From: a virus
Lineage: Duplodnaviria > Caudoviricetes
Strand: one strand, 5' to 3'
DNA: 43,425 nucleotides
Virus record (IMG/VR): IMGVR_UViG_3300024181_000008
Span: 1 to 43,425 of that record
The notes under the pieces were generated by a model. That model had not been told where the DNA came from. It worked only from the letters and a program-made list of their open reading frames with translations, and made no database searches. The stretch's first letter is position 1. Each line of letters begins with the position of its first letter. The position numbers and the translations under genes are program-made. Of the stretch, positions 128-42,642 are shown piece by piece.

Positions 128-625
128 GAGCAAAAGATGTTCTACGGGACAGTCCGAACGGACGTTAACACTCAGGTCACGGCCTTGATCAACAAAGAGC
201 TTCGAACCGTGCTCGGCGACAAGCGGCTCGACGTGAATCTCGGCAATCGCTTGCGTAAGGCGATCAATGAAGAACTTGCGACGAAGACGAACTCGAACCC
301 GATTTACTCGCGGCAATATAAGGCGATGATGGCGGGCGGCGACAAGGATAAGGCTGTAAAGTTCATCGTCACAAACGCCTCGAAAAACGTTTCGGCAGTC
401 GTTAAGCAAATCGTGAAAGAGTTCGCTCTGACGCCCGGAAGCCGCGGGAATGGCGCCGGGGGCTCGCAGCAACGGCGCGCGACCTCGAGCGGCAACGGTC
501 AACCGCAAACGATTCCAGGCAAGCCGAAGGCGGGAGACGTCGACTGGACCCGGAGCGACAAGTCGCAATTCATTTTGCCGCATGGGCAGGTGTGGGACAA
601 GCAAGGCAAACTTCGGAAGTGGTGA
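2..625 (+). CDS. 3' part of putative capsid scaffolding protein (full gene 42643 across the origin to 625, 426 aa)
   Basis: Same frame as the ORF starting at ATG 42643; lies between portal and major capsid genes; helical, charged, with Gly-rich linkers. Confidence 0.75.
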   Translation, partial: LYNDLVSKVLKPMQTLAQKAANDPLAADRQKLEADRQELLTREQKMFYGTVRTDVNTQVTALINKELRTVLGDKRLDVNLGNRLRKAINEELATKTNSNPIYSRQYKAMMAGGDKDKAVKFIVTNASKNVSAVVKQIVKEFALTPGSRGNGAGGSQQRRATSSGNGQPQTIPGKPKAGDVDWTRSDKSQFILPHGQVWDKQGKLRKW

Positions 626-629
626 CGGA

Positions 630-912
630 GTCAGGTTGCTGTGAACTTGGCAGTTCTAGGCAAACCAATAACTGACAAAAACAATGCGCTGCCCGTGGCA
701 GCCTAAAGACTCACGGCGGGGGCGGGCGACCGTCCCCCGTAAAAAGATTCTCTGATCGTTGGACCTCAAAGAGCCGCGGACTCTCTCTAACCCGCTAAGT
801 GAAGCGTCCGACCGATCAGGATGTAAGGCCCCGCTACGGCGGGACGCTGTGCGCTAAACACTCGGCAGACCGAAGCCGTGCGCTGCAGGAGCGCGAATCG
901 AAGCGTGCAAGC
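630..912 (+). ncRNA. Structured RNA element in the scaffold-capsid intergenic region (family unknown)
   Basis: At least six helices readable by eye, including GCGA and cUACGg tetraloop hairpins, G-U pairs and A-rich linkers. Confidence 0.55.
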
Positions 913-933
913 TCAAAAACAGGTACCCAGGCT

Positions 934-2271
934 ATGACCGCAATGAATGAGCAAGCGACTCAGGCCGTGGAACTCGAGGCCGTTCGGGAAGATGTTCCCG
1001 ATTTGATGCTCACCGAGGACACGTTCTACGCTCGGCTCAAGAAAGCGGGCCGTGTCATCCCCATGTCGACCTCGACGGGCGGCGGATACGGTTCAAGCTT
1101 CGACAGCGGCGGACGGCCTTCGCTTCGCATTCCGATGCGAATCAAGGCAGGTTCGGCGCATACCCAATTCGACGCGAACGGCGGCGACATGGGACGCGGC
1201 ACGGGCTCGGTTTACGCTGCCCAGTTCCTTTCTCCGGTTTCCTTCTCGGAAGCTTGCGAGATCACGGCACAAGCGCAGTGGTCGACCGACTCGGGCAAAA
1301 AGTCCCGAATCAACGTCAAAGCGACCGAATTCACTCACACTCTTGAGCAGTTCAAGAGCAACCTCGACGCCGATTTGCAGGGCGACGGTTCCGGCACGCT
1401 CGGGACGGTCGTCACGGCGAGTTCGGGTTCCGGCTCTGCCGGTCCTTCGTTCTCGTTTGTCGACGTCGACAACGCAAACCAGTTTTTCGACAACCAAGTC
1501 GTGCAGGTTTTTCCGTCGGTTGGCGGAACGACCCGCGGCTCGTTTCAGATCTCGTTTGTTGACGGCGTCGTCAATCGTTTGTGGTCTGCCGATGCTCTGC
1601 CGAACGCTGGCGGGGCGACGACCACGGGCGACTTGCTCGTCGTGAACGGCGCGGCCGGAACGGCCGGCACGTCGATCATGGGCATCAAGGCGTATCAGGT
1701 AAACGGGAACACGGGGACCCTTAACGGGCTCTCGCGGAACCAATACCCGGGCCGTCTTTCGACCCCCACGGTCGACCTTGCGGGCGCGGCGATCACGGAA
1801 CAGACCGGTCGCTTCATTACAAGCAAGATCGCATTGGCACTCGGAAACGAGTCGCCGGCTTTGGCCGATCTTGTTTGGTATATGAACGTCGATCAGGCGG
1901 CCGCGATCGAGAACCTCGCGACACAGGTCGCGATCACGAATCAACAGCAGATCAAGGGCGACTCGTCCCAGGATATGCTGAAAAAGTTCACGCCCTCGAC
2001 GTTTGTCGGTTACGACATAATCAAGAGCGTGCACGCCGAACCCGGGCGCGTTGACGCGCTATGCCTCAAGTACTGGGGCATCGGAGAACTCAAGGCTTCT
2101 GACCTGTACGACGTGAACGGCCAAACGGTCTTCCCGACGATTGGTTCTTCCGGCGGCATCAACGCCTCGAGCATCTTCTATTTCGTGACCTCGCTGAACG
2201 TTTATAACTCGAACGTTCGCGCCGGCGCGTACATCCAGAACGCGCAAATCCCGAACGGCATCTTCGGATAA
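934..2271 (+). CDS. Major capsid protein (445 aa from ATG 934)
   Basis: Position after portal and scaffold; size and composition fit; followed by hairpins; ATG 934 preferred over GTG 799, which lies inside the structured RNA. Confidence 0.8.
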   Translation: MTAMNEQATQAVELEAVREDVPDLMLTEDTFYARLKKAGRVIPMSTSTGGGYGSSFDSGGRPSLRIPMRIKAGSAHTQFDANGGDMGRGTGSVYAAQFLSPVSFSEACEITAQAQWSTDSGKKSRINVKATEFTHTLEQFKSNLDADLQGDGSGTLGTVVTASSGSGSAGPSFSFVDVDNANQFFDNQVVQVFPSVGGTTRGSFQISFVDGVVNRLWSADALPNAGGATTTGDLLVVNGAAGTAGTSIMGIKAYQVNGNTGTLNGLSRNQYPGRLSTPTVDLAGAAITEQTGRFITSKIALALGNESPALADLVWYMNVDQAAAIENLATQVAITNQQQIKGDSSQDMLKKFTPSTFVGYDIIKSVHAEPGRVDALCLKYWGIGELKASDLYDVNGQTVFPTIGSSGGINASSIFYFVTSLNVYNSNVRAGAYIQNAQIPNGIFG

Positions 2272-2278
2272 CATTTTC

Positions 2279-2346
2279 CCCGAGAACTCGGCCAATCACC
2301 GACTCGGGCGGCAGGCATGGGGCGGGGAAACCCGCCCCCTCTCTGC
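2279..2346 (+). terminator. Twin hairpins after the capsid gene (partial terminator or mRNA stabiliser)
   Basis: cccgag...ctcggg nested hairpin, then ggggcggg-GAAA-cccgcccc; only a weak U-tract follows. Confidence 0.5.
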
Positions 2347-2373
2347 TATTTCAGGAAATCAGGAGAACAGAAC

Positions 2374-2706
2374 GTGAGCAAGATCGAGAACTATCAGCCC
2401 CTCGGGGCCTTCATTCTCATCAAAGTGATCGAGGAAGATCTCGAGATGATCGGCGGGATTGTCCTGCCCGATATCGCGAAGCAGAAGTCGAACAAAGGCC
2501 GCGTGATCGCGGTCGGCGAAGGACTAAGACAGTTACAGTCGAACTCGATGCAGCAAGTCGGAGTCGAAGTCGGCGACACCGTTTTGTTCAGCAAATACGG
2601 CGGAACCGACGTCAAGCTCGACGGCGAGGACTATCAACTCGTCCGCTATGACGAGATCTACCTCAGAGAGCGCAAGGTCGCGCTTGTTTCGAGTGTGGCG
2701 CCATGA
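2374..2706 (+). CDS. groES: Co-chaperonin GroES/Cpn10-like protein (110 aa)
   Basis: PLGxxILIK, GGIVLPDxAKQK mobile loop, GRVIAVGEG, VGDTVLFSKYGGTDVKLDGEDY are hallmark GroES motifs; AGGAG SD before GTG 2374. Confidence 0.92.
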   Translation: MSKIENYQPLGAFILIKVIEEDLEMIGGIVLPDIAKQKSNKGRVIAVGEGLRQLQSNSMQQVGVEVGDTVLFSKYGGTDVKLDGEDYQLVRYDEIYLRERKVALVSSVAP

Positions 2707-3011
2707 AGTTCAGAAAAAAGCCGGTTGTGATCGAAGCGGTTCAACTGACCTGGGCGAATTGGGGCGAGATTTGCGACTTCGTTCCTAAACCGTGGTTTGT
2801 TCGCGGCGTTTGGCTCGATGAAAACGGCAAGCCCTTACCTGACGGGCAAACTCGCTTTACCAATGGCGAAGGTAATCTCGGTTTGCTTATGAAGACGCTC
2901 GAGTCGGAAGAGTTCCTCGCGACGGGCGGCGATTGGATTATAAAGGGCGTCAAGGGCGAATTCTACCCCTGCAAGCCCGACATTTTTGCGGCGACCTACG
3001 AGCCGGCATGA
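2703..3011 (+). CDS. Conserved small phage protein (KFRKKPVVIEAVQ...GDWIIKGVKGEFYPCKPDIF family)
   Basis: Recognisable widespread phage family; ATGA overlap with groES. Confidence 0.85.
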   Translation: MKFRKKPVVIEAVQLTWANWGEICDFVPKPWFVRGVWLDENGKPLPDGQTRFTNGEGNLGLLMKTLESEEFLATGGDWIIKGVKGEFYPCKPDIFAATYEPA

Positions 3012-3739
3012 CCTGGACGATCAGCGGAAGCGAACGCCGGCGCTGCCCGCCCGAATACCAGGAGCACCTCAACCGCCTCGGCGGATTCAACCGCTTCGGC
3101 GAGCCAAACTTCCTGCTCGTTTGGGGTCAAACCCATACGGATACGATCTACGGGCAAATGCACGACGGCAAGCGCGGGCAGCACGTCATTTTGATGTTTC
3201 ACGACATTCCCGCTTGGCATTTGCTTCAATGGAAACCGCCCGAAAACTTCGGAACGGCCGAGATGTGGTACGCGATGACCTGGAACGAGGACGACTTGCT
3301 TCACATCCTCGGGAATTACCCGAGCCGCGGCGTTTACATGGCGTGCCCGTTCAATCTCTACGTTAAGAAGATCATCAAGGGCGACGTCGTCACGAACCCG
3401 GACGGCTCGAAAGAGATCAGGGGCGAACGGCTCGAAATCGAGGCGATGCCGCTTTCGTTCTGGATTCTGGACCTTCTCGTCCCGAACATTTTGAAGGAAC
3501 GGGACAAGACGTACCTCGAGAAACAGTTTGCGGTCAGGGCGCAAATGGAGCGCGAACGCAAGGCATGGCGTGACAAGGCGATGGACGCCTACCGCAATGC
3601 TTCGCCCGCCTTCGGTGGGAACGACTTCGACAAGAGTCAGAACCGCGAACGGATGCTTGCCGAACTCAAGGCTAAACGCTTCCCCGTCACGGCCGAAGAG
3701 GCCGCGCGACGATTGGGACGCGGGCACACCGTTCGATAG
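3008..3739 (+). CDS. Hypothetical phage protein (243 aa)
   Basis: ATGA-coupled to the previous gene; protein-like sequence. Confidence 0.8.
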   Translation: MTWTISGSERRRCPPEYQEHLNRLGGFNRFGEPNFLLVWGQTHTDTIYGQMHDGKRGQHVILMFHDIPAWHLLQWKPPENFGTAEMWYAMTWNEDDLLHILGNYPSRGVYMACPFNLYVKKIIKGDVVTNPDGSKEIRGERLEIEAMPLSFWILDLLVPNILKERDKTYLEKQFAVRAQMERERKAWRDKAMDAYRNASPAFGGNDFDKSQNRERMLAELKAKRFPVTAEEAARRLGRGHTVR

Positions 3740-3772
3740 AATCAGGAAATCAGGAAAAGGAGAACGAGAACC

Positions 3773-4585
3773 ATGCCACTAGCAGAAGGAAAAACGGCGC
3801 TTGCCGACGAGCAAGCCCGACTCAAGGAACAGGAACTCGACGGGCCGATTATCTACACGCCGAGCCCGCTTTTGGACATGCTGCCTTCGGGGCACGTCTA
3901 CGTTTTCAGCGTCTTTCCGCAAGAAAAGATCGTCGCGAAGGGAATTCTCGGCAAATACCGGATTCCGGCTTGTGCGGCCGGCGAACGAGTGTCGACGCCG
4001 CTCAAAATTCCCCTGATCGTTATGTCGTCGTACTTCGACGCGGCGAGTCAGAGCATGAAAACCGATATTATGAAAGGCGAAGCCCTCGCTCAGGATATCG
4101 TGCGGCCTTACACACTTCTCGAGCGCGGCGCCGACTGGTCGGTCGGCAATGTTCTCGATGACTACGGCGTTTTCTGGACGAAAAACGAGGTTCCGACGGA
4201 CAAGGAAGTCGCCCGAGCCCGGGAGAAACTTGAAACACTTTTCCGCCGGCAACTTTCGGAAGCGACGCGGCTCGAGACGACCGATCAACTCGAGTTCATC
4301 ACGCCCTTGATGCGGCTCGCGGCTTCCTACTTCAAGGAAGACCGGCCGTGGAACCGGATTTACAAGAAAATGGAAGCCTGCTTCGCGTGCGGCGGCGATG
4401 TTCGCGCCGGCGTGATCATTCACTCTTGCGGCGCGGTTATGCCCGGACAGTGGAACCGCGCAATCGCGGCAGGACTCAAGACGGTTGAACAGGCCCTTGC
4501 GGCTGGAATCGACCTGGACGCCGAAAAGGCGCCGGCGAGTGATAAGCCCGCAAGGGGTAAGGGAAAAGCAGCCGACAAGCCGTAA
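3773..4585 (+). CDS. Hypothetical phage protein (270 aa) with C-terminal CxxC...HxC motif
   Basis: AAGGAG SD; long ORF in the head module; CFACG...HSCG. Confidence 0.8.
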   Translation: MPLAEGKTALADEQARLKEQELDGPIIYTPSPLLDMLPSGHVYVFSVFPQEKIVAKGILGKYRIPACAAGERVSTPLKIPLIVMSSYFDAASQSMKTDIMKGEALAQDIVRPYTLLERGADWSVGNVLDDYGVFWTKNEVPTDKEVARAREKLETLFRRQLSEATRLETTDQLEFITPLMRLAASYFKEDRPWNRIYKKMEACFACGGDVRAGVIIHSCGAVMPGQWNRAIAAGLKTVEQALAAGIDLDAEKAPASDKPARGKGKAADKP

Positions 4586-4612
4586 ACAACGGTTTACCAA
4601 GCGGCCTACGAT

Positions 4613-4678
4613 CTTCGGGGGGCGGCAAGATACCTGTAGAGACTCCTGATCTTTACAGGCCTTGCTTGCCCCTCGGGG
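4613..4678 (+). promoter_or_regulatory. 66-nt imperfect RNA hairpin with loop CUCCUGA
   Basis: 4613-4629 pairs with 4661-4678 and 4633-4642 pairs with 4650-4659; several G-U pairs favour the + strand. Confidence 0.7.
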
Positions 4679-4702
4679 CTTCAACAATTTTAGGGGGACC
4701 TT

Positions 4703-5494
4703 TTGCCGAGCGTACCGGTAGGAACTTACTTCACAGCCGACGAAGGCTTGAACCTTGCGCGAGCAATCGTCAATGACATGTTGCGCTCGAGTGCCGGTCA
4801 GACGCTCTCGAATACCAAGCCGTACACGATCGAATATCTAAACGCCGCGGTCGAAGATTGTCAGGAATACCTCGCCAACAATGGAGTGACGTCGAACATC
4901 AAGGATGACGTCATTCTCTCGCCTCTTACGCCCGTCCAAAACGTCAATCCAGGAGTTCAAGTTTATGTCAGCGTCGAAGGTTACTTCGACGGCTCGGTTA
5001 TGCACTCGACCCCTGCCCTTCCGCCCGACATGATTCTACCGCTTCGCTTGTGGGAACGTCAGACGGGGAGCGGTCAAACGTTCCAGCCCATGAATCAACC
5101 GGAAGACGGGCTTCCCTCGGTTCAGCAAGGGACCTTTTTCAGTATGTGGGAATGGCGCGAAGACAAGATCGCCCTTTTTGGCGCGACGCAATCGCGCGAC
5201 CTTCGCGTGCGCTATGAAGCCGCGCTTCTCCCCATCAAAAACGACGCGGACCTCACGAAGGCGATCATCAAGATTCGCGGCGGCAAGCGCGCCGTCGCTT
5301 TCGCTGTTGCCGAGTATTTCGCGGCTGCCAGGGGCGCACCTCAACAGACCTGGGCGAATCAGCAAAAGACCGCGCGTCTCGACGAGCTTGTGAACCGGCA
5401 GGTCAGGAAAGATCAGCGCATTGCGTTCAGGCCGAAAGCCTACAATGCCGACCGCGGTTCAATCGACGGAAGTCTTTCGGGGTCCTTCAAGTGA
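4703..5494 (+). CDS. Putative head-tail adaptor (podovirus tail tubular A-like)
   Basis: Size and position downstream of capsid; N-terminal helical YLNAAVEDCQ segment, LPPD motif and C-terminal helices typical of adaptors. Confidence 0.6.
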   Translation: MPSVPVGTYFTADEGLNLARAIVNDMLRSSAGQTLSNTKPYTIEYLNAAVEDCQEYLANNGVTSNIKDDVILSPLTPVQNVNPGVQVYVSVEGYFDGSVMHSTPALPPDMILPLRLWERQTGSGQTFQPMNQPEDGLPSVQQGTFFSMWEWREDKIALFGATQSRDLRVRYEAALLPIKNDADLTKAIIKIRGGKRAVAFAVAEYFAAARGAPQQTWANQQKTARLDELVNRQVRKDQRIAFRPKAYNADRGSIDGSLSGSFK

Positions 5495-18978: not shown

Positions 18979-19191
18979 ATGGAACGAAACGAAACGGGAG
19001 TCGTCAAGTGGTTCAATTCGGCGAAAGGCTACGGATTCATCGGGCGGGATGGCGCCGACGACGTCTTCGTTCACTTCTCGGCGATTGAGGCCGAGGGTTA
19101 CAAGAGTCTCAACGAAGGGGACAAGGTTCAGTTCGATATCGTCAAGGGCCCGAAGGGTTTACAGGCTTCAAACGTCATAGTCGTTAATTAG
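18979..19191 (+). CDS. cspA: Cold-shock protein (CspA family)
   Basis: GVVKWFN, RNP1 KGYGFI, RNP2 [30 protein letters not shown]. Confidence 0.95.
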
Positions 19192-26602: not shown

Positions 26603-28390
26603 ATGTTTGTGAAACAACTGACTTTGAAAAATTGGCGGTCGCATTTCGATTCGAGCTTTAAGTTCGGGAGAATCAATCTCATAAGAGGGTTAAACAATTC
26701 AGGGAAAAGCTCGATCGCTATGGCGATAGAGTGGGTTCTCACAGGTCGTTGCCCCGGGACGGATGAAAGGGGTGTTTTAAGCGATTCTTTCATCTCCCGG
26801 AGAAAAGAGGCTAAGGCGGCGACGATAACCTGCGAAATCGCGGTAAACGGCGGTTTACCGCTAGTCGTAGAGCGTAAGCGAACCCACAAAGACACCGCCT
26901 TGATGATCACTCAGAACGGACAAGGACTGATCGGCAAGCCGGCCGATGAGGTCCTCGGCACCTTTTTCGAGAAGAACCTCGTCTCGGCGGCATTGCGCGC
27001 CGGCCGGTTCCTGCAGCTTTCAAAGGACGCGCAGGCCGAACTCTTAGGCGACCTGCTTCGCCCGGAAGCGGCGGCAATTCCCACCGAGATTCATCAAGCG
27101 GCCGTGCCGGCCGAGGTGTTTTTCAGTGGGGCAACGGCTCTTGATCTTGACTCCGTTCGGAATCTTGAAGCCGCGATGATCAAAAAAAGAGCGGAGTGTA
27201 CGGCGACGCTCAGAGAACTCGGCGAACCCATCGAGATTCCTGCACGGCCTGATGTTCCGACCGCGTTCCAATGTCAGAGGCGACTCGACGACCTACGCAT
27301 GAAGCAAAACAGCCTTGTCCGCGAGAAGGAAGCCCTTCTCAATAAATGGCAGGAATCGCAGAGCAAGGCGCGTGCGGACCTTGAACGCTTGCAAAGGGCC
27401 CGTGCCGAAGCTCTCGACCTCAAGGGTGAGGCGGCGCTCATGGAAGCCCTCGAAAAGGAAGTTGAGGTGACAAAAGCCGAGGAGACGCTCTCCCGTTTGC
27501 GTTTCGAAATCGCTGATCTCGAGGGTCAGATCAAAAACGCCGAGAAAAAGGCCGGAAAGTGTCCGACATGCGGGCATGAAGTCGACAGTGACGATCTCGT
27601 CGGACGTTACAAAGAGGGTATTTCCGCCCGGAAGTCCCGCATCCCGACGCTCGAGAGTCTTGTCGGCAAATACGAGCCGATGCATGTCATCAAAGAGAAG
27701 CTTCGAAAGCATCGCGAAGCCGTTTCGGACATTGTTCGGCTCGAAAAAGTCCTTTCTGAGACGCCGGCGGAAGTACCTGAACCGGATACGACCTCAATCG
27801 ACGGGGAGATCGCCGATCTCGAAGGCCGGATGCAGAAGGGACAACAGATTGTCGCGGAAACGGCAAAATACGAGGCCGACCGCGCGCACTATTTAGCCCA
27901 GGTTGAGAAGAAAAAGGCCCTCGAGGCCAAGCGCGAGGCCTGCGATACGATCGCGAAATGGGCCGGTCCGACCGGCGTTCAAACGCAAATGATGGGCGAC
28001 AAGATCGGCGTGTTCAAGGGCGCCGTCAATGATGTAATGCACAAGCTCGGTTACGACATTCAGATCGAAGAAACGAGCGGTCTGATTCTCGTCGGCCGGT
28101 TCCCGATCGGCACTCAGTTTCGCCCGTCCGAACTTTCTGAATCCGAACAATGGCGCTTCTCGGTCGCCTTTCAAGTGGCAATTGCGAAGGTGAGCGGGCT
28201 CGGCTTCGTTGTCCTCGATCGCGCGGACGTGCTCGTCGGAGAGAACCGCGGCCGGTTTATGCAAGCCGTCGTCGACGCCGGCCTCGATCAGGTCTTTGTG
28301 CTGGCCTCGATCGATCGCAAGGTCGACTTTCCGCCCGAGATCACCGTTTTTGACCTCGAACTCGAGGAAGGAAGGACTATCGTCGCATGA
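26603..28390 (+). CDS. Rad50/SbcC-like SMC ATPase
   Basis: LKNWRSH, Walker A GLNNSGKSS, coiled coils, CPTCG zinc hook, LSESE signature, VVLDRAD Walker B. Confidence 0.9.
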   Translation: MFVKQLTLKNWRSHFDSSFKFGRINLIRGLNNSGKSSIAMAIEWVLTGRCPGTDERGVLSDSFISRRKEAKAATITCEIAVNGGLPLVVERKRTHKDTALMITQNGQGLIGKPADEVLGTFFEKNLVSAALRAGRFLQLSKDAQAELLGDLLRPEAAAIPTEIHQAAVPAEVFFSGATALDLDSVRNLEAAMIKKRAECTATLRELGEPIEIPARPDVPTAFQCQRRLDDLRMKQNSLVREKEALLNKWQESQSKARADLERLQRARAEALDLKGEAALMEALEKEVEVTKAEETLSRLRFEIADLEGQIKNAEKKAGKCPTCGHEVDSDDLVGRYKEGISARKSRIPTLESLVGKYEPMHVIKEKLRKHREAVSDIVRLEKVLSETPAEVPEPDTTSIDGEIADLEGRMQKGQQIVAETAKYEADRAHYLAQVEKKKALEAKREACDTIAKWAGPTGVQTQMMGDKIGVFKGAVNDVMHKLGYDIQIEETSGLILVGRFPIGTQFRPSELSESEQWRFSVAFQVAIAKVSGLGFVVLDRADVLVGENRGRFMQAVVDAGLDQVFVLASIDRKVDFPPEITVFDLELEEGRTIVA

Positions 28391-28620
28391 AACACGGGGA
28401 ACTTTTGGGCTCACTTGAAGGCGTCGTGAAGTGGTTTCGGGACGAGAAGGGTTTTGGCTTCATCACGGGCGCCGACGGCCGCGACTACTTCGTCCACTAC
28501 TCGGGAATCGTGCGCCAAGCCGGCCAGCGCGGCTCACTTTTGCCCGATCAGCGGGTAGGGTTTCAGGGTTGGAAGGGTGAGCGCGGCTTTTTCGCGACGG
28601 AGGTTTTCCCGATTGCTTAA
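28387..28620 (+). CDS. Second, divergent cold-shock-domain protein
   Basis: GVVKWF, KGFGFI, YFVHYSGI; ATGA-coupled to the SMC ATPase. Confidence 0.9.
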   Translation: MKHGELLGSLEGVVKWFRDEKGFGFITGADGRDYFVHYSGIVRQAGQRGSLLPDQRVGFQGWKGERGFFATEVFPIA

Positions 28621-31226: not shown

Positions 31227-31253
31227 GAATCAGGAGCACAGAAAGGAAACTCA

Positions 31254-32492: not shown

Positions 32493-32984
32493 ATGAGCAC
32501 AGCTTTACTCGACAGTCAGACCACTTTCGCGCAGTCTACGGCAGGTCTTGCCCCAGGGGTTCCGGCGGTCGGTTTGAATCGTAAGGTTATCGCAATCAGT
32601 TCGGCGCAACTGCTCGCGATCAAGGACACTCCGATTCAGCTTGTACCCGCCCCAGGCGCGGGCTTTATGAACGTTCCGGTCGCGATTCTGATCGACATGC
32701 AAGCGGGCTCGGCGGCCTATACGGACGCGGGCGGCGCGGTTTCGGTCACGCAAGGAAGCTGGACGCAAGCCCTTGCCGCGAATACGGTCTTTACGGCCGG
32801 TATCGGTTTGCGAAATCATCAACTTGTCGACTTTGCGGCGCTTGCAACGGCGGCCGCGACGCCGACGAACGAAAACGCCGCGCTCACACTTGCCAAGGCG
32901 ACGAACAACTTCGCCGCCGGCAATGGCACGGCCCTTGTGACGGTTCTTTACCTCGTCGCACCGGTCGCACCCGCGGTCAACTAA
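32493..32984 (+). CDS. Virion/decoration-like protein, paralogue of the C-terminal domain of 5491-6846
   Basis: Shared APGAGF, AYTDAGGAVS and ENAALTxxKATNNFAAGxGTA blocks. Confidence 0.8.
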   Translation: MSTALLDSQTTFAQSTAGLAPGVPAVGLNRKVIAISSAQLLAIKDTPIQLVPAPGAGFMNVPVAILIDMQAGSAAYTDAGGAVSVTQGSWTQALAANTVFTAGIGLRNHQLVDFAALATAAATPTNENAALTLAKATNNFAAGNGTALVTVLYLVAPVAPAVN

Positions 32985-35396: not shown

Positions 35397-35442
35397 CCCT
35401 GAGATCAGGACTCGGGCGAATCAGGAAATCAGGACGGGGCAA

Positions 35443-39100: not shown

Positions 39101-39133
39101 CGGGGAAATCAGGAGCAAAGAAAGGGAAAGACA

Positions 39134-40065: not shown

Positions 40066-42615
40066 ATGCCGAACGACACCGAGATCGTGACGTCGACGAC
40101 TGAGAACGACGAGGGCCTCGAGCAGGAAGAGCGCGAATTCCAGCCCGGGGAACTTTGCGCGTTTGATGCGACGAATGATCAGGTTTCGCTCGAGGAAGAC
40201 GGTGAAGGCGAAGATACCGGCCTCACTGCCGAACAGAAAAAGAATTGCGTCAAAGGCATTGCGTCAAAGGTTGCACAGCGCGACCTGACAAGCCGGCGCC
40301 TGCAGGTTAGAGACGCCTGGAAAGCGCGTTACTTCTGGCGCGGCAATCAGCACTTGCTCGCGGGCCGTAACGGCGCATGGGTTCTGCCGCAAATGGTTCA
40401 GATGGGCGGGCAGAGTTACGACGATCACCAAGGCGAGACGAATATGTACCTCGCTTTTGGCGACACGATCACAGCTTCGCTCACCGCGGGGACGCCTTCG
40501 GTTCGCTTCGAGCCGGCAGAACCCAAAAACCCCGCGGGAATCACGGCTGCCGAGCAGGCTCAGAAGGCAATGCTCCTCATCGAGCGATCGAACAACTGCA
40601 TCGTGCTCCAAGAGGACATGGCGCGGTTTCTTTGGACCGACGGGCTTTGTTTTGCATACACGCGGCACGTCCTCGACGCGCAACGGTTTGGCTTCACGCA
40701 ACCCGATCTTGACGAAGAACACGATGAGGTTTCATACTTGCCCGAACTCGGGGGCGAGGGGCCGGAAGGCGCGGCGGCTGGCGCGTCAGGAAATCAGAAC
40801 CCCACGGCAACCGGAACCGGAAAGGGCAGCCCCCGAGGTTCCGAAGTCATTCGCATGCTTGGCACGCTCGAGGTGAAGGCGCCGATTCAGGCAAACGACC
40901 TCGACGGCTCGCAGTTTGTCCAGTTTTCCGAAGAGATCGATATCAACCTCGGGAAAACCGCGTACCCCGACGTCGCCGACGAGATTCAGCCGGCCCAGGC
41001 GCCGACCGCCGAGTCCGACTATGAACGCCTCGCGCGCACTTCGATCATGATGGGCATGCGCCCGTCGAACATGACGAACGACGCGATGACCTACAACTGC
41101 ACGATTCAGCGGACCTGGGTCCGTCCTTCGTTCTACGCCGAAGAACAGAACGACGATCTTCGCAACTGGCTTTACGACAACTTCCCGAAGGGCTTGTTTG
41201 TCGTGATGATCGGGCAAACCGTTTGCGAAGCGCGAAACGAATCTTTTAGTGATCACTGGGTCCTGATTCACGCGCGGCCCGGAGACGGGATGCACCGGCC
41301 GGCGCTCGGCACCCCGCTCATTCCGCTACAGGAAAAGCTCAACGATTGCATGGACCTCGTTCACGAGAGCTTCATGCACTTGATTCCGATCAAGTGGGTC
41401 GATTCCGAAGCGATTGACGCGAATGCCCTCGGCGACATTCAGTCGAAGCCGAACACTTATCTCAAGATGAAGCGGCGGGTCGACAAAGCCCTTGCCGAGA
41501 ACTTCTTCGTCGAGCCGCAAATTCAGATTGCCGACGGGCTTCTCACCTACATCGAGAAGCTTTTTGGTGAGATGGCGCAGTTCCTTTGCGGCGCGTTTCC
41601 GGCCCTTTTTGGCGGAAACACAGGCTCGAATGATACCGCCCAGGGAATCGCTTCGCAGCGTGATCAGGCTCTCGGGCGCATCGGCCTGACGTGGCGGAAC
41701 ATCAAAGCGGGCTACGCGAAGATCATGCTTCAAGGTGTGATGGCCGCGGCCGAGCACCGAAAAGAGATCATGGCCGGCACGATCAAGGGCGGCGATGGAA
41801 CCGACCTCAAGATCGCGATCGACCCCGAAGATCTCAAAGCGAAGCTTTTGTGTTACCCAGACTCGGACGAGAACTTCCCCGAGTCCTGGGTCGCGCAACG
41901 CATGATCTGGCAGAACCTTCTCGAACAAGCGAAGGCGAACCCGATTCTCGCGGGCATTTTGCAGGCTCCGCGGAATCAACTGATCGCGAAGGACAAGATC
42001 GGCGTGCAAGAGCTTGTGATTCCGGGCGCCGACTCATCGCGGAAACAGCTTGCCGAGATCATGATTCTGCTCGAGACGGGACCCGTTCCCAATCCTGCAA
42101 TGCAGGAAGCCGAAGCTCAGGTCGCGGAACTTGCGAGCAAGGCCCAGGCCGCCGGCATCGAGCCCGATCAAACTGTCATCCAGGGGATACAGGACAAGCT
42201 CAAGGCGATTCCGCCTATGGTTTCGACGGTGCCGATCGGGAAGCTCGACGACAATGCGGTCGAAGCCGCGGAAATCAGGACGTGGGCGAATTCTCCCGAA
42301 GGTGTGCGGGCGTTCAGCGAAAACCGCGACGGTTACGACAACGTGATGACTCACTACGATGAGCATATGGCGGCGATCGCCCAGGCCGCGCAAGGGAATC
42401 AGCCGGCACCGGCCGAAAAGCCGATCAGTGAGTCGATCAACTTCAAAGATCTTCCGCCCGAAGGTCAAGTTCAGATGGCAATGAAGGCGGGTATTAAGCT
42501 CGATCTGAACAAGCTCAACGTCGCCGCGGCTCAGGACCGCGCGGCCGAAGTGGCGAAAGCAGCCGCTCGCGTCGTTCCTAACGGGACGCCCGAGGCGGCG
42601 ACAGCAATTCAATAA
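40066..42615 (+). CDS. Portal protein (849 aa, with long C-terminal helical extension)
   Basis: Size and position between terL and scaffold; FW.GNQH, TAQGI.S.RDQA and Gln/Ala-rich tail typical of podovirus portals. Confidence 0.85.
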   Translation: MPNDTEIVTSTTENDEGLEQEEREFQPGELCAFDATNDQVSLEEDGEGEDTGLTAEQKKNCVKGIASKVAQRDLTSRRLQVRDAWKARYFWRGNQHLLAGRNGAWVLPQMVQMGGQSYDDHQGETNMYLAFGDTITASLTAGTPSVRFEPAEPKNPAGITAAEQAQKAMLLIERSNNCIVLQEDMARFLWTDGLCFAYTRHVLDAQRFGFTQPDLDEEHDEVSYLPELGGEGPEGAAAGASGNQNPTATGTGKGSPRGSEVIRMLGTLEVKAPIQANDLDGSQFVQFSEEIDINLGKTAYPDVADEIQPAQAPTAESDYERLARTSIMMGMRPSNMTNDAMTYNCTIQRTWVRPSFYAEEQNDDLRNWLYDNFPKGLFVVMIGQTVCEARNESFSDHWVLIHARPGDGMHRPALGTPLIPLQEKLNDCMDLVHESFMHLIPIKWVDSEAIDANALGDIQSKPNTYLKMKRRVDKALAENFFVEPQIQIADGLLTYIEKLFGEMAQFLCGAFPALFGGNTGSNDTAQGIASQRDQALGRIGLTWRNIKAGYAKIMLQGVMAAAEHRKEIMAGTIKGGDGTDLKIAIDPEDLKAKLLCYPDSDENFPESWVAQRMIWQNLLEQAKANPILAGILQAPRNQLIAKDKIGVQELVIPGADSSRKQLAEIMILLETGPVPNPAMQEAEAQVAELASKAQAAGIEPDQTVIQGIQDKLKAIPPMVSTVPIGKLDDNAVEAAEIRTWANSPEGVRAFSENRDGYDNVMTHYDEHMAAIAQAAQGNQPAPAEKPISESINFKDLPPEGQVQMAMKAGIKLDLNKLNVAAAQDRAAEVAKAAARVVPNGTPEAATAIQ

Positions 42616-42642
42616 TCAGGAAATCAGGAAAAGCGAGGTAAC

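Follow-up and report, generated by a model that had tools for sequence, protein, structure and literature searches.

A conserved phage hairpin RNA whose loop changes together with words in the leaders of head genes

The DNA analyzed here (the window) is an entire phage record; it is 43,425 bases long, has a terminal repeat of 127 nt, and carries all of its annotated genes on the + strand. Family matches were obtained for terS (35443), terL (35919), GroES (start 2374), an endolysin and two cold-shock proteins. The portal (40066), scaffold (42643) and major capsid (934) genes were named from gene order, size and conservation; none of the three gave a family or structure match. The presumed scaffold gene starts at ATG 42643 and runs through the terminal repeat into an ORF at 17-625. 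For the major capsid protein, no PDB sequence match and no match among cultured phages were found, and its predicted model (pLDDT 36) was unusable.

Two conserved genes, g3773 and g4703, flank the structured RNA element on which our analyses focused (Table 1). The predicted model of the g3773 product is confident (pLDDT 82) and was without a fold match in structure searches (best Z 4.4); a structure search with g3071 likewise gave no fold match. The g3773 product has four invariant residues (C203, C206, H217 and C219), possibly a zinc site. None of the GTDB genomes encodes a relative, and the cold-shock homologues point to no host. Elsewhere in the window, the ORF at 32493-32984 is approximately 51% similar to the C-terminal part of g5491 and is kept in all 12 complete relatives, and a second repeated leader, AGAGCAGG(A/T)GCAT-N3-6-ATG, precedes three early genes (20921, 21586 and 23561), two of its copies being able to form 6 bp with the hairpin loop. 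In four relatives (L043 at ~4880-5132, L079, L081 and L130) the capsid gene is apparently split near codon 20 by an ORF-bearing insert, whose core words we take to be group I intron-like.

Table 1. Coordinates of the genes, RNA elements and leader words discussed in the text.
Feature	Position	Strand	Remark
Conserved structured RNA, capsid-gene leader, ~190 nt	742..915	+	41 sequences
Presumed major capsid gene	934..2271	+	gene order and high conservation
groES leader, tandem TCAGGA / AATCAGGAG	2351..2365	+	GTG 2374
g3773 leader, tandem AATCAGGA x2	3740..3755	+	just 5' of separate SD AAGGAG
g3773, conserved, directly upstream of the element, itself a target	3773..4585	+	function unassigned
Structured RNA element, long interrupted stem, conserved basal flanks	4610..4679	+	
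Seed loop CUCCUGA, complementary to UCAGGA(G)	4643..4649	+	
g4703, conserved, directly downstream of the element	4703..5494	+	
g31254 leader, single AATCAGGAG	31228..31236	+	gene not found in 12 relatives
terS leader, weak hairpin and tandem AATCAGGA (35419, 35427)	35398..35434	+	GTG 35443
g39134 leader, single AATCAGGAG	39107..39115	+	gene not found in 12 relatives
Scaffold leader, tandem AATCAGGA x2	42614..42629	+	

The hairpin at 4613-4678 is the lowest-energy 70-nt window of the whole genome on either strand (MFE -41.6 kcal/mol, z -6.10; none of 200 shuffles was equally stable). It contains 28 pairs, including five G-U (27 with a 7-nt loop), in agreement with the initial annotation, which had described a stem of about 27 bp with G-U pairs. 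The mean unpaired probability of the seed loop is 0.78, and the stem is bordered by GAUCUUC (4610-4616) and GGGGC (4675-4679), the latter being mostly GAUGC or GUCGC in relatives. The minus strand of the hairpin folds too (z -4.83). U-rich tails follow the element in many relatives (U4-U6 in several), whereas in the window no U-run stands behind the stem, the next letters being CUUCAACAAU; the stem is also far longer than that of a usual intrinsic terminator. Rfam searches of the window, seven near-branch loci and eight far-branch loci gave no match at the gathering score (best E-value, 1 in 600-5000).

The target word AATCAGGA occurs in the window 13 times (12 copies on the + and one on the - strand) versus 1.15 expected, a count reached by none of 100 shuffles. 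One motif had previously been placed before six genes. The exact 8-mer, ATCAGGAG, was found upstream of groES (2358), g31254 (31229) and g39134 (39108) only, with a fourth + copy (11889) that is coding, while the leaders of the other three genes, g3773, terS and scaffold, carry the 7-mer ATCAGGA in tandem; the groES words are nearly tandem. The groES target is located directly behind a post-capsid hairpin, and that of g31254 lies 16.7 kb upstream of the element. Since the word stands just 5' of a separate SD both in the window and in the relative L002, it is not simply an SD. The predicted duplexes between loop and leaders range from -8.2 to -11.2 kcal/mol, compared with -5.6 to -7.1 kcal/mol for a generic anti-SD 8-mer.

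Relatives were collected in near-branch searches that returned 22, 41 and 75 partly overlapping loci (L063, identical to the window, was left uncounted). In every relative that has a capsid protein at least 75% identical and that reaches the gap, the element is present between the g3773 and g4703 homologues. The near branch provided 24 distinct gaps and 23 distinct hairpins; the records of L002, L034 and L084 end before the gap, and the gap of L104 is not included. In an alignment of nine sequences 83% of the cells of the stem are paired and 15 of 25 pairs show double changes; for 14 sequences the values are 84.6% and 14 of 27 pairs, and the observed paired fraction was reached in 0 of 500 shuffles. 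The flanks UCUUC and GAUGC/GUCGC/GAGGC are nearly fixed within the near branch, and a side hairpin is optional and variable in sequence. A strand-symmetric count over the near-branch stems gave 40 G-U versus 18 A-C oppositions, and of 23 hairpins 17 are more stable on the + strand and 6 on the minus strand, for which reasons the element is most likely a + strand RNA. In lineages other than those of L009, L010 and L086 (see below) the + strand side loops have, by eye, UUCG or GNRA caps.

The element starts 0-27 nt behind the g3773 stop codon in 17 of 21 near-branch rows, and in 5 of 19 rows (L003, L005, L013, L019 and L074) g4703 starts 6-8 nt after the element, without room for an SD. The stem could serve as a shunt by which the translation of g3773 and g4703 stays coupled. 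In L009 (2514-2618), L010 (10900-11002) and L086 (10639-10743) the side hairpin carries UUCGAGC, which resembles the T-loop consensus of tRNA. Readings as something like a T-box, a tRNA, a group I intron or a hammerhead were rejected, as the bases that they require are unconserved across the alignments. A second contact between the element flank UCUUCG and a leader CGAAG was also discarded, showing no covariation on inspection.

A far branch, with capsid proteins 33-39% identical and the same gene order, was found by a search with g5491 after the hypothesis had been set. Of 176 further relatives, 80 were examined; 46 of them reach the gap, yielding 37 distinct gaps. Stems were called in 36 of these 37 gaps (in L316 the genes abut; in L314 the automatic call was misplaced); the element thus seen in the far branch is the same, but both its loops and the leader words are new. 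With a covariance model (R1; nine pairs, near branch only), 12 of the 14 genomes or fragments searched yielded a single copy each at E<=1, and 24 distant loci gave no match; these blanks say little on absence, because R1 missed the far-branch elements too. A DNA-pattern scan (38 stretches) revealed no further member among those checked. In L108, L111, L115, L117, L124 and L128 g3773 and g4703 abut or nearly so, and the element is absent there, which implies that it is dispensable in some distant relatives or located elsewhere. In L316 CTCAG is kept in the g3773 leader, yet the gap holds no element, which may sit at another place; in some distant relatives the stop and start codons overlap. No consistent strand bias of ATCAGG was observed across 16 distant loci counted.

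The initial annotation had proposed to look in related phages for compensatory changes between the loop and the leader motif, and such changes were found. In the near branch, CAGG is present within the last 45 nt of 19/19 scaffold and 24/25 g3773 leaders, compared with 17% of background windows (genome-wide counts of non-coding CAGG were crude and too noisy to use). Phages with the loop UCCCUG have CAGGG at 18 of 22 leader sites, those with UCCUG have CAGGA at 20 of 21, and CAGGT is confined to phages with an ACCUG loop (13/45 sites versus 0/43 elsewhere). Near-branch leaders are complementary to the loop of their own phage over 6.42 nt and to foreign loops over 5.76 nt (19 dereplicated phages, p=1e-4), and the excess persists without the CCCUG clade (p=0.008), both values being permutation p-values from which, as in the other comparisons of own and foreign complementarity given below, relatedness is not fully removed. 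The near-branch loop base changed five times on both trees, and the independent pairs, never opposite in direction, are too few for a sign test.

The far branch gave pairs of different sequence, such as CCCGAUU with AATCGGG and UUCUCCUGGUUU with AAACCAGGAGAA. In a blind test with the whole hairpin, far-branch phages matched their own leaders over 7.47 nt and foreign ones over 6.00 nt (29 dereplicated phages, p=5e-5), the best complement falling in a mostly unpaired part for only 59 of 106 leaders; a target word is present in 24 of 29 g3773 leaders. Eight loop classes (CCUGA, CCCUG, CCCGA, CCCGG, CCUGG, CCUGC, CCUGU and UCUGA) were distinguished among 50 phages of both branches, those of the far branch being assigned by eye with the leaders in view, so that the whole-hairpin test alone is blind. 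The class changes eight times on the capsid tree, with 1-4 independent pairs per class on supported branches, a number at which no sign test can reach 0.05; none of these pairs runs in the opposite direction. In the leaders of scaffold, of the gene that follows the capsid gene and of g3773, the word tracks the loop. The commonest leader class equals the loop class in 47/50 phages, ties counted (the exceptions are L258, L295 and L296), and the own 5-mer complement occurs in the leaders of 49/50, i.e., the loop does not vary freely. A prediction made beforehand, that CTCAGA leaders would accompany a UCUGAG loop, was borne out in L314, L324 and L333 (UCUGAGU loops, TCAGA leaders). CTCAG is also used by the leaders of L002 (26 copies on the + and four on the - strand), the relative for which the UCUGAG loop had first been predicted and whose record ends before the element.

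Base pairing is the only simple account of matched loop and word changes at several positions, and we consider it highly probable, judging from these sequences, that the hairpin loop pairs with the leader words; that 6-7 bp are weak without a chaperone counts against this. The idea of one anti-motif hairpin addressing several translation-initiation regions has thereby gained support in both branches, where loop and leader word change together. The same annotation had warned that the match might be due to chance or to a generic anti-SD, and this concern has been answered: most loops are not CUCCU, and pairing also involves A-rich sequence that precedes the SD; the UCUGA loops pair with CTCAGA, which is non-SD; and complementarity to own leaders exceeds that to foreign ones. 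An ordinary terminator or stabilizing hairpin with a chance SD-like loop would suit the U-rich tails behind many copies and the CUCCU of the window's loop, a generic anti-SD, but it cannot yield the excess of own over foreign complementarity or eight matched class switches, and the window's copy is without a U-run; we regard it as hardly credible.

A second conserved structured RNA was identified in the capsid-gene leader. It is a single-copy RNA, in which 17 of 21 predicted pairs show double changes, and it gave no match in an Rfam search. It comprises a long 5' stem, a UNCG/GNRA-capped stem and a multi-way junction with a near-invariant CAG-NNC-GAAG hairpin, and one of its hairpins seems to be present also in the more distant L121 and L126. 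The hairpin GCGC-UGCAGGA-GCGC (880-894), overlooked by the initial annotation, has a loop complementary to the seed; in relatives this loop is usually UCAGG, and L010 is without it. In the near branch, no covariation of the loop beyond a clade split was detected (p=0.32). The far-branch capsid leader does covary (7.14 nt for own versus 5.62 nt for foreign, 28 phages, p=5e-5), and there the best match usually precedes the start codon by 33-135 nt. The SD of the capsid gene in the window is poor (-3.9 kcal/mol).

The word in a hairpin loop of the capsid leader, together with the folding of the minus strand (more stable in the 6 of 23 hairpins mentioned above), would also fit a model without RNA-RNA pairing, in which a protein binds the word and the minus-strand hairpin acts as its decoy, a scheme that we would liken to CsrA/CsrB, or in which the word is a DNA site. 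This model is very improbable, given that the G-U over A-C bias (40:18) and the UUCG/GNRA side loops point to the + strand, that the specificity of the protein would have to switch at least eight times in step, and that L012 has the wobble-compatible AUCGGG in place of AUCAGG. Candidate proteins are also few: nearly all early genes are missing in the 12 complete relatives and no protein partner stands out, the non-virion genes common to most of them are only four unannotated ones near the terminase, and both cold-shock-domain genes (18979-19191 and 28387-28620) are absent from 12/12.

As far as sequence can establish it, the target set consists of scaffold, the first gene after the capsid gene, g3773 and terS, upstream on the presumed late transcript; a single late transcript was inferred because all genes lie on the + strand. 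In 13 genomes, for which a crude gene caller was used, 32 of the 239 leaders in the 14 kb ahead of the element have an own complement of at least 6 nt, compared with 5 of 148 toward the tail genes and 17 of 403 in the remaining regions. Between the end of the last site and the start codon there are 5-17 nt in 19/19 near-branch scaffold leaders and 7-13 nt in 21/24 far-branch g3773 leaders, an SD-like run being overlapped in 21; the apparent GTG start is itself overlapped by the site in L008 and L022. CAGG was also seen by eye beside the apparent terS start of L005, L008, L010, L013, L022 and L053. As the majority of targets are single-stranded and coincide with the ribosome site, the contact would be mainly loop-to-leader, not loop-to-loop. 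The kiss between two loops that had been suggested for terS is unsupported: the terS hairpin (loop AUCAGGA, 35404-35410) is weak when folded alone (-7.1 kcal/mol, z -1.78, matched by 12/200 shuffles) and is lost in a 76-nt context, where another fold appears (z -0.75).

As the main reading, to which we assign a probability of roughly 0.5, the loop would pair with the ribosome sites of head genes and block ribosome entry, serving as a delay or a feedback brake. A paired stretch of 6-8 nt (in some relatives as long as 12-13 nt), covering the SD or lying immediately 5' of it, would occlude the 30S subunit, and tandem copies of the word would raise capture. As part of the late mRNA, the element would work in cis from its own transcription onward and in trans with rising levels of this mRNA; translation of the upstream cistrons would be unhindered up to the point at which the element is made or has accumulated, after which scaffold, GroES, terS and g3773 would be damped. 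Both scaffolds and chaperonins are used more than once. Synthesis of the capsid protein would continue despite the brake because the capsid site is tens of bases from the ribosome site, and the reusable helpers (scaffold, GroES and the terminase small subunit) would be turned down. This reading is favored because the pairing falls on the ribosome footprint, the duplexes are predicted to be stronger than those of a generic anti-SD, and the bacterial precedents compared are, in the available portions of their descriptions, all repressive (PMC7398697, PMC5320573, PMC3868564).

The same pairing might have the opposite effect if the element is a 3' translation enhancer, by which 30S subunits are captured and passed on to the start sites of the head genes upstream, a reading that we consider possible though unlikely. 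The position of the element close behind the g3773 stop codon, where a terminating 30S could be captured, the covarying capsid site at a distance where blocking is impossible, combined with the poor SD of that gene, and the invariant basal flanks, which suggest a bound factor, would all agree with an enhancer, but the sites overlap the SD and some start codons, so that pairing would compete with initiation. By analogy, the element could tentatively be pictured as a bacterial counterpart of the 3'-CITEs of plant viruses, i.e., a ribosome-binding module with a programmable auxiliary anti-SD loop that delivers 30S to address words; our literature search found no bacterial precedent among the listings and abstract openings covered. 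The 3'-CITEs (BTE, TED, kl-TSS), according to the accessible part of PMC5382211, are eukaryotic, factor-binding and activating, and use short, displaceable pairing to A-rich leaders; the likeness lies in a downstream structured element with long-range pairing of its loop to a 5' leader, which for the phage element is predicted from complementarity.

It is improbable that the pairing instead guides processing or decay (by leader cleavage through RNase III or E, or by Rho-coupled termination), or that cutting of the stem releases a trans-acting small RNA, the main output being mRNA stability. Stems of ~25-35 bp with conserved basal mismatches and the U-rich tails would be suitable for this, but duplexes of 6-8 bp are too short for RNase III, and the SD-less g4703 start 6-8 nt behind the element (5/19) fits an intact mRNA in which the stem joins stop and start. 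Some precedent is offered by icaR and OppZ, in which pairing is joined to RNase III or Rho in the portions of the reports available (PMC3868564, PMC7398697).

Three bacterial or phage systems resemble the brake described above, as far as the accessible parts of the cited reports go. The C4 RNA of phages P1/P7 consists of three stem-loops, pairs through the two seed loops a' and b', is excised by RNase P as a ~77-nt RNA and controls the antirepressor (PMC5320573, PMC12197685). As with the element, a loop of a phage RNA pairs with short sites of a ribosome-binding region, and matched loop/target substitutions occur (PMC5320573); unlike C4, the element has one long stem, one seed, several head genes as predicted targets and no Rfam match, and it resides in the terminase-to-tail module (g3773/g4703), not in an immunity/antirepressor operon. 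In the icaR mRNA of Staphylococcus aureus, a downstream 7-nt UCCCCUG pairs with the upstream SD region and blocks initiation (PMC3868564). The likeness, limited to sequence, is a downstream motif complementary to an upstream SD region on the same (inferred) transcript, whereas icaR involves one gene and one site, and the element is a conserved structured module in a polycistron, with several cistrons at distances of up to ~12 kb, sites in tandem and a seed extending beyond the SD. OppZ and CarZ of Vibrio cholerae are 3'-UTR sRNAs that are released by RNase E, end in an intrinsic terminator, depend on Hfq and do not act intramolecularly (PMC7398697). These operon-end RNAs pair with ribosome sites of their own operon in negative feedback, and the element would likewise pair with its own upstream sites, but it is internal, with a gene close behind.

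Among the listings and abstract openings covered by our literature search, no description of such a phage loop-to-leader system was found. Neither RNA appeared in the term-searched part of the supplements of PMC10690425; either may be listed elsewhere in them as an unnamed candidate. On the comparative evidence we regard the element as a real phage RNA family, apparently undescribed so far, that combines a covarying seed with targets in several genes, and as a variant of antisense-loop control.

The ratio and timing with which tailed phages make capsid, scaffold, chaperonin and terminase from a single late transcript are usually credited to promoters, ribosome-site strength or protein autoregulation. 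Here, a small and widespread RNA module with a swappable seed appears to address a defined set of head genes, and its eight natural matched seed/target classes make a direct loop/leader swap test possible. If the module is repressive, it would extend control of the C4/icaR type to a multi-gene morphogenesis regulon and could provide orthogonal translation switches; if it is activating, it would represent a new mode of bacterial translation initiation and an RNA-encoded regulon with at least eight natural address codes.
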